Source: a virus
Length of the DNA stretch: 64,000 bases
Strand: one strand, 5' to 3'
Virus record (IMG/VR): IMGVR_UViG_3300042898_004347
Coordinates: 64,001 to 128,000 of that record
Shown here: one piece after another, positions 2,865 to 7,169 of the stretch
Layout of the letters: each line of letters begins with the position of its first letter
Position numbering within the stretch: the stretch's first letter is position 1
Program-made: the position numbers and the translations under genes
The notes under the pieces: generated by a model
The model's input: only the letters and a program-made list of their open reading frames with translations
What the model was told of the DNA's origin: nothing
Databases searched by the model: none

Positions 2865-3095
2865 TTATCCGTCGTTGCCAATGGCACTTACGGGACAGCC
2901 CTCGAGGGCTTCCATACACATGTCAATGCCTGCTTGTGTTGTGGGTTGAGTATGTACATATGAAAAGCCGCCATCTTCTTCACGAGTAAAGAAGTCTGGA
3001 GCAGTTTCACGGCAAAGGTCGCAGTCGATACACTGAGTGTCGACATAAAACTTCCCTGCTGCGTTCTGTGAATATCTATCCGTATTGTTTGCCAT
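2865..3095 (-). CDS. Monocluster ferredoxin
   Basis: CIDCDLC...CP motif. Start MANN at 3095, because the upstream in-frame part overlaps tRNA-Pro. Confidence 0.92.
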   Translation of the reverse strand: MANNTDRYSQNAAGKFYVDTQCIDCDLCRETAPDFFTREEDGGFSYVHTQPTTQAGIDMCMEALEGCPVSAIGNDG

Positions 3096-3199: not shown

Positions 3200-3319
3200 T
3201 TACTTCTTCAGTTTAGACTGAACGACTTCAACTGCAGCATCAACCTTTGCTTTGTTTTTGCGAGCAACAAGAAGACCAGCAACGAAACCGACAATGAGTG
3301 CGAGGAGTAATGAGAACAT
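3200..3319 (-). CDS. 39-aa single-TM late protein (MFSLLLALIVGFVAGLLVARKNK...)
   Basis: Hand translation; hydrophobic N-terminus and basic tail; TATAAATA at 3353-3360. Confidence 0.7.
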   Translation of the reverse strand: MFSLLLALIVGFVAGLLVARKNKAKVDAAVEVVQSKLKK

Positions 3320-3367
3320 ATGTTTATTGAGTTGAGGTTAACCGTACATATCTATTTATATGTAAAA

Positions 3368-3445
3368 TGGCGGGATGGACGGGACTCGAACCCGCGACCT
3401 TCTGCGTGACAGGCAGACGCTCTAAACCAGCTGAGCTACCACCCC
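3368..3445 (-). tRNA. tRNA-Asp(GTC)
   Basis: Loop CTGTCAC, GCCA. Confidence 0.94.
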
Positions 3446-3529
3446 TAAAGTTTCACACAGCCATTATTGCCATTGATGTAAATCAAGAGGACTACTGTGT
3501 ATGTTAAATTATTTGAATAGATGTAGCTT

Positions 3530-3902
3530 TGCTTTATATGACCACACTTCAGCGAGTTTCTTATTTACGCATAAGCTCCAACACGTTTAATGTTTCCCAA
3601 TAAACGTACTGTTATGAACTCAGAGGCTTTTCGTTACTTCCATGTTTTTCCGCTGACGGTTAGACCCCGTGCTCGTACCGAAGATGGAAACAATCTTCTA
3701 CATTCCGAGCTGCTATTCAAAATTGGATCCTTCTGCCATACAAGTCTTCCAGAACATTTCCAGAAGATGAATGCACTTGTATGCGTTACACTCTTAAACC
3801 CCCTAAAGGAACGCAACCTTTTAAATATGTGATTGCCCAGTTTCTTAGCAACATGGAGCTTTACCTTAGCGCCGGCGAATGTAACGGTCTGCATAAACAC
3901 AG
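3530..3902 (-). ncRNA. Large structured ncRNA of unknown class
   Basis: Terminal 5'/3' helix plus multiple internal helices (see findings); lies between tRNA-Trp and tRNA-Asp. Confidence 0.55.
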
Positions 3903-3909
3903 AAGAAAT

Positions 3910-3984
3910 TGGCACGGATGGAGGGAATCGCACCCTCATAAGGCAGTTTTGGAGACTGCTGCACTACTAATGTACCACATCCGT
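3910..3984 (-). tRNA. tRNA-Trp(CCA)
   Basis: Loop CTCCAAA; atypical D and T loops. Confidence 0.85.
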
Positions 3985-4066
3985 AAAAATTAAAGCAGCG
4001 GTAACCTAATCCGCGGATGGACGAACCGATTCCAGGGTTCAAACATGACCCATACTTTAAAATAAA

Positions 4067-4144
4067 TGGGGCGATCAACGGGGCTTGAACCCGTAACCCC
4101 GAAAATCACAATCTCGTGCTCTGGCCAATTGAGCTATGATCGCC
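4067..4144 (-). tRNA. tRNA-His(GTG)
   Basis: Loop TTGTGAT, G-1:C73 pair, CCCA end. Confidence 0.9.
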
Positions 4145-4149
4145 GTAAA

Positions 4150-4226
4150 TGGAGCGCCAGACAGGGATCGAACCTGCATGTGACTGTTTTGCAAACAGAA
4201 GTTTAGCCTTTCAACAACACTGGCGC
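4150..4226 (-). tRNA. tRNA-Cys(GCA)
   Basis: Loop TTGCAAA, U73 discriminator. Confidence 0.85.
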
Positions 4227-4917: not shown

Positions 4918-4991
4918 TGGTGCCTTCGACAAGAATCGAACTTGTGACTAGCGCTTATCAAGCGCTGGTTATACCGTTTAACTACAAAGGC
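4918..4991 (-). tRNA. tRNA-Ile(GAT)
   Basis: Loop TTGATAA; 5' end overlaps the stop codon of the upstream endonuclease. Confidence 0.9.
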
Positions 4992-5583
4992 TTTTAATAT
5001 ATTCCACATTTATATCTTTATTTAAAAGAATGATTATTTTTACAGAATTCTGTTTTGCTGCTAATTGTATTTTTTCTGCATCCAAAATGGCTTTATAATC
5101 GTTTTTAGGATCTAAATATAAATCATATTCTGTTAGATAGAAATCAGCAAAATATCTTTTATTGTTGTATTTTAATGATTTCGGTCGAATCCATTTTATA
5201 TTCAATTCATTTAATAATGAACTACATCTTAATTCATATGTACTCTGTAGTGTAACTTCATTACCATATGAATCATTTACTTTAAATTTTTTACTTCTTC
5301 CAGCCAAAGGTTGGTAACCACCTAAACCTCGATCTTTTGCTATTTTTGATAATAGTGATTTAGTTTCTTGAGTATGCGCAGTTCCTGTACCGGGACCAGT
5401 TTTTGGTCTAAAACATCTAACATCGGACAATACAGTTTTACCTTTATTCCATGCAACCCTCTCTACTTTAGGTTTAATGACTTTAGGTTTATCGTGCCAC
5501 TTTAAATGACGATTGAATGCGAAAAGCGATACGGCATTTCCACATTTAGGACAAATAGATGTTGTTGTTTTACCTTTGGGCAT
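4978..5583 (-). CDS. Free-standing homing endonuclease (Zn-finger + NUMOD3 + PD-(D/E)XK), paralog of 880-1503
   Basis: CPKC..H..H, AWNKG, HTQETK, QSTYE...YFADFYL...YLDPKN. Start MPKG at 5583 after TATAAATA at 5589-5596; AT-rich. Confidence 0.8.
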   Translation of the reverse strand: MPKGKTTTSICPKCGNAVSLFAFNRHLKWHDKPKVIKPKVERVAWNKGKTVLSDVRCFRPKTGPGTGTAHTQETKSLLSKIAKDRGLGGYQPLAGRSKKFKVNDSYGNEVTLQSTYELRCSSLLNELNIKWIRPKSLKYNNKRYFADFYLTEYDLYLDPKNDYKAILDAEKIQLAAKQNSVKIIILLNKDINVEYIKSLCS

Positions 5584-5601
5584 TAATCTATTTATAGAGG
5601 T

Positions 5602-5634
5602 AGACGATGCTCTAACCAACTGAGCTACTAGACC
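5602..5634 (-). pseudogene. 5' half tRNA (Ile-like), truncated at the anticodon loop
   Basis: GGTCTAGTAGCTCAGTTGGTTAGAGCATCGTCT followed directly by the late promoter; no complementary 3' acceptor strand downstream. Confidence 0.8.
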
Positions 5635-5639
5635 GAAAA

Positions 5640-5729
5640 TGGCGGAAATAGAAGGATTCGAACCTTCGGGGCTTTTGAGGACCCGAGACTTTAGCAAAGT
5701 CTTGCCTTAAACCACTCGGCCATATTTCC
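5640..5729 (-). tRNA. tRNA-Ser(GCT)
   Basis: Loop TTGCTAA, long variable arm. Confidence 0.93.
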
Positions 5730-6401: not shown

Positions 6402-6443
6402 TATTTATAGGACTATCATACTTAGTTTTGGTACAAAGTAAAC
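6402..6443 (-). promoter_or_regulatory. Tandem early (GTTTAC-N17-TATGAT) and late (TATAAATA) promoters of the leader/tRNA operon
   Basis: GTTTAC 6443-6438, TATGAT 6420-6415, TATAAATA 6409-6402. Confidence 0.75.
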
Positions 6444-6455
6444 AACAAAGCGCAA

Positions 6456-7169
6456 TTAGTGCATAAAAAGATATGGTTTCCATTCCTCGCGGATACCCAT
6501 ATCCTCGGGGATTTGAACGCCGATCTGGACACGGTTCTTTGGAACCACTTCCTTACCATTAATGTCAAAATACGGGAAAATGTTGTCCTTGGCAGCATTA
6601 CAGTCGCGGCAGGCAAGAACAAGGTTGAACCCGTCATTGGTACCACCCTTTGACTTGGGATGCACGTGATCCTTGGTGGCAACGCAGAAAGGTATCTTTT
6701 TGAGGCAGTACTGACAGGTGCCCTTATAGATGCTGTAAAGACTCCGAAGTGAGGTTTGCTGACCACGACGAACAGTATGTCCGAAGTGAGTAGTGCAGAC
6801 AACGATGGTCGGAATTGCCCATTGCTTTTCTTCGCCACTGATACGGTCCGGAGCGGAACGCAGACATGGCTGGTTGTCAAAGAGTTCTATGGTGTTCTTC
6901 GACCACGAATAACCGTCATTGTCCTCACGACCGTCCCATGGAATTGTGTTACCACTCGCGTCGATACCGTGAGCCCTACCATTCATCATGTGACGCATGC
7001 ACGCACGGGCCGTGAAGAAGGCATAGGCTTGGTAGGAACCGTCGAGCACCAGTGTGGTACGCGCAGAAGCATCAACAGGAGTCAATACATTAACCTGTAA
7101 TTGATTTAACAACTGAAGTGAAGCCTTTTCGTGGTACGTTGTATTTGCGAGCATTAGAGTAAGATTCAC
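6456..7169 (-). CDS. HNH endonuclease (McrA/HNH_5-like); start uncertain
   Basis: CQYC...TKDHVHPKSKGG...NLVLACRDCN. Confidence 0.88.
   Translation of the reverse strand: MNLTLMLANTTYHEKASLQLLNQLQVNVLTPVDASARTTLVLDGSYQAYAFFTARACMRHMMNGRAHGIDASGNTIPWDGREDNDGYSWSKNTIELFDNQPCLRSAPDRISGEEKQWAIPTIVVCTTHFGHTVRRGQQTSLRSLYSIYKGTCQYCLKKIPFCVATKDHVHPKSKGGTNDGFNLVLACRDCNAAKDNIFPYFDINGKEVVPKNRVQIGVQIPEDMGIREEWKPYLFMH

Follow-up and report, generated by a model that had tools for sequence, protein, structure and literature searches.

Three adjacent structured RNA modules in the tRNA-Trp/tRNA-Asp spacer of an uncultured T4-like phage

The spacer between the tRNA-Trp and tRNA-Asp genes of an uncultured T4-like phage consists of three adjacent, independent RNAs and not of one ornate molecule of 370 nt. 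The explanation that we consider probable as a whole is that these are three separate structured RNAs, here called modules B, C and D, each closed by its own terminal stem, which would be co-transcribed and processed and would probably act in trans. That phage tRNA clusters hold extra stable RNAs is knowledge of some decades' standing; among these, RNAC and RNAD of phage T4 are still without a function. We describe here the modular make-up of the spacer, its secondary and tertiary pairing, its conservation, its non-coding nature and its absence from known families, as observed in the DNA and its homologues.

Results

The spacer lies in a long tRNA array

The window, i.e. the whole stretch of 64,000 nt that was analysed, is part of a 140-kb IMG/VR virus record that is about 84% complete and represents an uncultured phage known from metagenomes only. 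The DNA polymerase of this phage is about 50% identical to homologues from T4-like myoviruses, the nearest being those of Phage C48C1 and of cyanomyoviruses, and the genome that hosts the spacer is that of a T4-like phage. ARAGORN found 21 tRNA genes in the minus-strand array of the window and 24 in the 14-kb stretch around the array. The spacer, its two neighbours and the features that it contains are listed in Table 1.

Several other genes were noted in the array. A tmRNA gene (Rfam, 102.6 bits; tag peptide GINKALSNFFGFAEEMPLAA) occupies positions 1-222 of the window, extends about 147 nt beyond its start (L403:5855-6223, minus strand) and belongs to the same RNA gene array; a tmRNA is also present in the relatives L008, L028, L021 and L015. 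On the minus strand at 4155-4224, a weak match to the Rfam tRNA model (32.4 bits) was not called by ARAGORN. Relatives have a tRNA-Cys at this position, between tRNA-Met and tRNA-His, and the match may be a degenerate or unusual tRNA-Cys. The array also contains a 4Fe-4S ferredoxin gene among the tRNA genes (2865-3095, minus strand; Fer4_13, E 1e-21) and, embedded among them on the opposite, plus strand, a gene for a staphylococcal-nuclease-like protein (1713-2168). ORFs resembling homing endonucleases are found within it at 880-1503, 4978-5697 and 6456-7169.

Table 1 Features of the tRNA-Trp/tRNA-Asp spacer and its neighbours (positions in the window)
Feature	Position	Strand	Description
tRNA-Trp(CCA)	3910-3984	-	Upstream neighbour; encoded CCA at 3910-3912; ARAGORN; Rfam tRNA, 55.6 bits
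Trp-Asp spacer	3446-3909	-	464 nt; contains modules B, C and D
Module B	3724-3907	-	184 nt; stem-closed; 11 helices; starts 2 nt past the CCA of tRNA-Trp
Module B closing helix, 5' strand	3899-3907	-	UUCUUCUGU; pairs with 3728-3736
Module B closing helix, 3' strand	3728-3736	-	GCAGAAGGA; contiguous with the 3' strand of hairpin CAUACAAGU/ACUUGUAUG
U-CCA after the closing stem	3724-3727	-	tRNA-like 3' end of module B; followed by AUU
B-C linker	3721-3723	-	3 nt, A/U (AUU); relatives insert other modules here between A/U-rich linkers (alignment A4)
Module C	3513-3720	-	208 nt; predicted five-way junction formed by a closing helix and four arms; linkers of 2, 0, 1, 3 and 0 nt
Loop-loop strand 1	3686-3692	-	UGUUUCC; hairpin loop of the GAAGAU/AUCUUC stem; pairs with 3591-3597
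Loop-loop strand 2	3591-3597	-	GGAAACA; hairpin loop of the ACGUUUA/UAAACGU stem
Module D	3455-3500	-	About 46 nt; stem-closed; closing stem ACACAG/CUGUGU; inner hairpin UUGAU/AUCAA; ends 9 nt before tRNA-Asp
tRNA-Asp(GTC)	3368-3445	-	Downstream neighbour; ARAGORN; Rfam, 69.8 bits

Homologues show that the spacer is modular

Related viral contigs were fetched through the nearby Clp-protease-like gene and searched with nhmmer. Further homologues came from exact-pattern scans of viral, metagenome and genome collections for conserved motifs; the scan of viral contigs with the 14-mer GAAACTGGGCAATC and part of the metagenome scan gave mostly chance matches, from which the true homologues were sorted with nhmmer. 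This yielded 25 distinct homologues of the 3' part of the spacer (module C), 13 of the 5' part (module B) and 22 of module D, all of them from related uncultured phages on phage and metagenome contigs; they form one clade, so that many of the changes counted below are inherited rather than independent. A blastn search of GenBank phages (50,697 records) with the whole spacer returned no match, and megablast with 12 kb returned tRNA-sized matches only. Bacterial and archaeal genomes gave six matches to a 21-base pattern, none of which was genuine by the covariance model of module C (R1); they were chance matches.

The comparison of these loci (alignments A1 and A4; context table of relatives) resolved the spacer into the three modules of Table 1. 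In the window and in nine variants (L008, L091, L120, L135, L148, L286, L367, L387 and L395), modules B and C are neighbours with 3 nt of linker between them. In five relatives (L011, L089, L095, L098 and L329) they are split by unrelated inserts of 81-255 nt, which are other stem-closed modules, and module C is found without module B in at least ten distinct relatives (L028, L105, L107-L109, L111, L113, L117, L360 and L380), the covariance model of module B (R2) detecting none in these ten loci. B, C and D keep their order and adjacency in several lineages, including L120 and L148, and may function jointly or share a precursor that has its own role.

The surroundings of the modules vary as well. 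The flanking tRNA pairs differ among contigs (Trp/Asp, Arg/Glu, Glu/Gln and Glu/Asp), the gene lying 3' of the modules is that of tRNA-Asp, Glu, Gln, Gly or Trp, and module C directly adjoins tRNA-Asp in L028 and L286; in every array examined, module C has the orientation of the tRNAs. In the relative L021, tRNA-Trp and tRNA-Asp are separated by 6 nt and no module is present. Furthermore, the B-C-D unit lies between protein genes in two contigs of 6.5-7 kb on which no tRNA gene was found (L120:2532-2993 and L148:3191-3652), and is not strictly bound to tRNA arrays. In L148, an ORF of unknown family is located about 150-200 nt 3' of the unit, and the flanking proteins, UvdE and a HATPase-like protein, gave no functional hint.

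Other stem-closed modules, of different sequence, fill equivalent spacers in relatives (L008:11277-11530, L089:612-731 and L098:8741-8995). Their closing stems include GCGAT/ATCGC, TTGATAGTT/AACTATCAA and CTGCA/TGCAG, and each is flanked by AATT(A)ATTT linkers. The spacers of these arrays appear to draw on a common stock of small RNA modules that can replace one another.

Module C is predicted to be a five-way junction with a loop-loop lock

In the alignment of the 25 distinct homologues of module C (A5), 60 pairs in 10 helices were paired in 99.0% of 1500 cells, versus 36-44% in slid controls; 12 pairs were changed on both sides, and none of 500 shuffles was as good. The covariance model R1 scored 264.5 bits on the copy in the window. 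The folding-energy z-scores of modules B and C were modest (-2.2 and -2.3 between the two modules), and that of the stretch 3530-3902 was -1.98. Since folding energy by itself is weak evidence, the case for these RNAs rests on covariation.

GCUCG/CGAGC and GAAGAU/AUCUUC form helices 2 and 3 of module C, and ACGUUUA/UAAACGU forms helix 9. The hairpin loops of the latter two stems are complementary to each other over 7 bp (helix 4), and this loop-loop pairing covaries at two positions (GC in 13 sequences, UA in 9, GU in 2 and AU in 1 at one of them; CG in 17 and UA in 6 at the other), two apparent mismatches vanishing with a register shift of one base. A further segment, GGAGCUU, pairs locally with GAGUUC through covarying AU, GC and GU pairs. 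An alternative hairpin, CUUAU/AUAAG, was rejected; it is mismatched in 6 to 9 of the 25 sequences. As judged from these pairing patterns, module C is a compact five-way junction in which two arms would be locked together by the 7-bp loop-loop pairing.

Among the homologues of module C, identity to the window copy is 83-99%, compared with 72-100% for the best-aligned tRNAs of these phages and 72-78% for their neighbouring Clp-like gene; module C is thus conserved to about the same degree as the tRNAs of the phage itself. Many of its unpaired stretches are invariant. Helices P1 and P2 never vary and contribute no covariation evidence, an invariance that could be due to a recent horizontal spread of the module.

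Module B has a tRNA-acceptor-like end, and module D is a small stem-closed RNA

For module B, 61 pairs were paired in 98.8% of the cells of an alignment of 13 distinct homologues (A6); 8 pairs had changes in both partners, a result that at most 1 of 500 shuffles could match. Its closing helix (helix 1, 9 bp) was paired at 99.1%, with one pair changed on both sides from CG to GU. The hairpin CATACAAG/CTTGTATG is helix 10. The four nucleotides that follow the closing stem read as a tRNA-like end, and the CCA of tRNA-Trp likewise precedes AUUU. NCCA is kept in 12 of the 13 homologues, the exception being L367 with TTCA. Its covarying pairs describe module B as a multi-branch RNA, whose closing stem is predicted to stack on a long hairpin and to carry an end that resembles a tRNA acceptor. 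The copy of module B at L286:533-713 has lost 17 internal nucleotides, and with them the 5' strand of a conserved hairpin (GGUAAGCUCCAUGUUG); this copy is possibly in decay.

The closing stem of module D shows an exchange of A:U for G:C in L395, L089 and L011 (RNAalifold, 22 distinct homologues).

The modules match no known RNA family

In a search of the whole window with Rfam 15, tRNAs were the only matches that reached the gathering score, and nothing was found within 3446-3909 when the region 3300-4100 was searched at E up to 10. The 4227 models covered included ROOL, GOLLD, all types of RNase P, group I and group II introns, tmRNA, 6S RNA, Y RNA and riboswitches, in agreement with the first-pass annotation, which had assigned the RNA to no family and had suggested ROOL, GOLLD, RNase P and group I introns for a check. 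In a search of 8 homologous loci, the matches that reached threshold were confined to tRNA, tmRNA and a single Pistol ribozyme located elsewhere. This self-cleaving ribozyme is part of a related phage's RNA gene array (L028:19876-19942; 54.5 bits, gathering score 34.5), and none was found in the window. With good covariation support from their alignments, modules B and C appear to be new RNA families of a known general kind.

Two resemblances were pursued and rejected. GGUAAAGCUCC and GGAGCUUAUG look by eye like the P4 strands of RNase P RNA, and GGGUUCAUAA presumably occurs in E. coli M1 RNA. Yet the RNase P models gave no match, the 'P4' strands fail to pair in 8 of 10 homologues and GGAGCUU has its local partner instead. 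A reading as a Y RNA, which associates with Ro60, was unsupported; neither a Ro60 (TROVE) nor an RtcB gene was found in the 140-kb record, which is about 84% complete.

The closest analogues of the modules are RNAC (species 1) and RNAD (species 2) of T4. The T4 rnaC and rnaD genes lie inside the tRNA operon, on the strand of the tRNAs and a few nucleotides from a tRNA; the setting in a tRNA cluster of a T4-like phage and the size class of 100-200 nt are shared. T4 rnaD ends with ACCA, as module B ends with UCCA, and rnaC has paired ends with a tRNA-like arm adjoining that stem. In contrast to rnaC, which has a canonical T arm, modules B and C are larger and lack one. The predicted five-way junction and loop-loop lock of module C set it apart from the T4 pair, which closes its operon, whereas the modules lie between tRNAs. 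Furthermore, a search of L277, the tRNA region of T4, with models R1 and R2 (E up to 10) gave no match, i.e. no detectable homology. The roles of RNAC and RNAD are not known (PMC3014915, PMC9697503).

A looser analogy can be drawn with GOLLD and ROOL, phage-encoded RNAs that are 'often near tRNA islands' (PMC12286853, PMC5737381). Like the modules, they are structured RNAs of phages or prophages that have no known function or protein partner and are defined by covariation alone. They differ in architecture and size (ROOL has about 580 nt and GOLLD often exceeds 800 nt, versus 184 and 208 nt for the modules), and their covariance models gave no match.

With tRNA the likeness is one of architecture and not of family. 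The 3' strand of the closing stem runs into an adjacent hairpin, several helices meet with minimal linkers at a junction, loop-loop pairing connects two arms in the predicted fold of module C, and module B ends with NCCA. A module is, however, about 2.5 times larger than a tRNA and is not a cloverleaf, having neither T-loop nor anticodon arm, and no tRNA or tmRNA-like domain was detected in 3446-3909 by ARAGORN or with the Rfam tRNA clan at E up to 10. The lysine riboswitch, with its roughly 170-200 nt, is also a five-way junction, and a loop-loop interaction connects two of its arms, as is predicted for module C. Its conserved nucleotides differ from those of module C, which has no Rfam match and in most contigs precedes module D and a tRNA rather than a regulated ORF.

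Other explanations of the spacer

The first-pass annotation of the window had described one structured RNA of about 370 nt at 3530-3902, and all the complementary segments that it quoted were found on the minus strand, at the positions given or close to them. Its local hairpins (CATACAAG/CTTGTATG, GCTCG/CGAGC with GAAGAT/ATCTTC, and ACGTTTA/TAAACGT) were kept through the changes seen in homologues, several of which are compensatory. The pairings proposed to join the two halves did not covary in this way. Across the 10 homologues in which both halves occur, 78.3% of cells were paired in the terminal helix (GACC/ACATT/CGGCG with CGCTG/AGTGT/GGTC) and AAGCTCCA/TGGAGCTT taken together, versus 78.6% in shuffles, and 457 of 500 shuffles did as well; single positions were broken in 8-9 of the 10 sequences, and one cell was changed on both sides. 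CCATGTT/AACATGG was broken in 4 of 10, and its 3' partner is deleted in homologues without module B. An RNA of about 370 nt whose halves are tied by the terminal helix, AAGCUCCA/UGGAGCUU and CCAUGUU/AACAUGG would agree with the existence of the complementary segments in the window copy and L008, with the merely 3-nt gap between B and C in the window and nine variants, and with ACAUU/AGUGU, which is pairable through wobble changes in 10 of 10 sequences. We nevertheless regard it as very unlikely, since the partners are missing wherever C stands alone and are separated by inserts of 81-255 nt in other copies, and since the same nucleotides take part in local helices with compensatory changes. 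What stands of the earlier description is a non-coding, structured stretch under selection; its halves are modular, have covarying closing stems of their own, and run to slightly different limits (3724-3907 and 3513-3720). Nor does the stretch look like a protein gene, which it was already said not to resemble. Two frames are open in the window, a sense frame of 101 codons (3634-3939) and an antisense frame of 80 codons (3590-3832), the latter persisting in most relatives, as would be expected anyway from the near-invariance of the RNA. Yet the sense frame, which would start within tRNA-Trp, is interrupted by stops or frameshifts in 9 of 9 relatives; both modules contain indels of 1, 2 and 4 nt, and indels of these lengths also fall within the antisense frame; and the ORFs of the stretch gave no significant match in Pfam. 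We give next to no credence to a small protein encoded by either frame.

Two further explanations accept the modules and deny them a life of their own. They could be cis-acting parts of the precursor (folding insulators, processing guides or protection against exonucleases) with no role after cleavage, a view with which their constant co-orientation with the tRNAs, their usual position between them, the resemblance of their stem-closed ends and A/U linkers to the surroundings of tRNAs, and the nearly invariable place of module D directly 5' of a tRNA are consistent. However, insulation needs far less than a five-way junction of 208 nt that has a covarying loop-loop lock and long runs of invariant unpaired nucleotides, the two tRNAs of L021 do without any module 6 nt apart, and the B-C-D unit of L120 and L148 lies between protein genes on contigs without a detected tRNA gene; a purely cis-acting role thus seems unlikely to us. 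Alternatively, in a recombination-prone array, the modules could be functionless remnants, either degenerate tRNA genes or scars of homing-endonuclease cassettes. The array is indeed plastic and bears endonuclease genes, modules are gained and lost between relatives, and the L286 copy of module B has its 17-nt deletion. Against this, module C is conserved about as tRNAs are, substitutions concentrate in compensatory pairs, and neither ARAGORN nor the Rfam tRNA model (E up to 10) gave any tRNA signal, which makes remnants hardly credible.

Discussion

Modules B, C and D are thus best understood as three structured RNAs of their own. The minus strand showed neither a sigma-70-like promoter nor an intrinsic terminator inside or beside the gap. 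With 14 copies versus 2.7 expected, the window is enriched in the T4 late-promoter motif TATAAATA, which recurs on the minus strand within the tRNA array, at 1601-1608, 2446-2453, 3353-3360, 5589-5596 and 6402-6409, which suggests several late transcription starts within the array. From the lack of a promoter and terminator of their own in the gap and the presence of late-promoter motifs upstream, we infer that the modules are co-transcribed with the tRNAs. A polycistronic tRNA precursor would carry B, C and D, the candidate starts being the upstream minus-strand motifs at 5589-5596 and 6402-6409.

The modules could then be excised by the tRNA-maturation enzymes of the host, in a scheme drawn from the layout of the spacer and from what is established on the processing of tRNA operons. 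RNase P would cut the 5' ends of the flanking tRNAs, and its cut at the 5' end of tRNA-Asp would fix the 3' end of the RNA upstream. An endonuclease of the RNase E type would cut the A/U linkers, after which 3' trimming would proceed back to the closing stems, and in module B to the encoded NCCA. Excision by tRNA processing had been part of the first-pass annotation; the co-orientation of the modules with the tRNAs that they abut makes release by tRNA-processing nucleases plausible.

As to function, the most likely possibility, which we hold with low confidence and by analogy with T4 RNAC and RNAD, is that the released modules act in trans as stable RNAs during infection. Our best guess is that module C may serve as a ligand, decoy or scaffold for a conserved component of the host's or phage's tRNA or translation apparatus, to which it would bind.

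A more specific proposal, which we put forward as a long shot, is that module C represents a new class of compact functional RNA of phage tRNA operons, either a homo-oligomer held by UGUUUCC/GGAAACA pairing between molecules or a decoy or ribozyme core, with module B as a possible enzyme substrate. GOLLD and ROOL, as was shown recently, self-assemble into RNA cages, nanocages held together by intermolecular contacts. Covariation reads the same for UGUUUCC/GGAAACA pairing within and between molecules, and by analogy with these cages module C may form homo-oligomers through intermolecular loop contacts. Its five-way junction and invariant unpaired nucleotides may instead constitute a ligand-binding or catalytic core. 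Module C could then be a ribozyme, or it could inhibit a tRNA-attacking nuclease of the host or serve as its decoy. Module B, which has an acceptor-like stem and NCCA, might separately be recognised as a substrate by RNase P, the CCA-adding enzyme or even an aminoacyl-tRNA synthetase.

In the favoured explanation, that of three separate structured RNAs, two well-supported new RNA families (B and C) and a small third one (D), each with a clear predicted fold, are added to the niche of the phage tRNA cluster. The tertiary lock of module C is suited to a test by compensatory mutations, and with its 208 nt the module is small enough for chemical probing, crystallography and cryo-EM. The 'spacers' of these arrays, which look like interchangeable stem-closed RNA modules, would thereby offer a concrete system in which to study the role of non-tRNA RNAs in phage tRNA operons.
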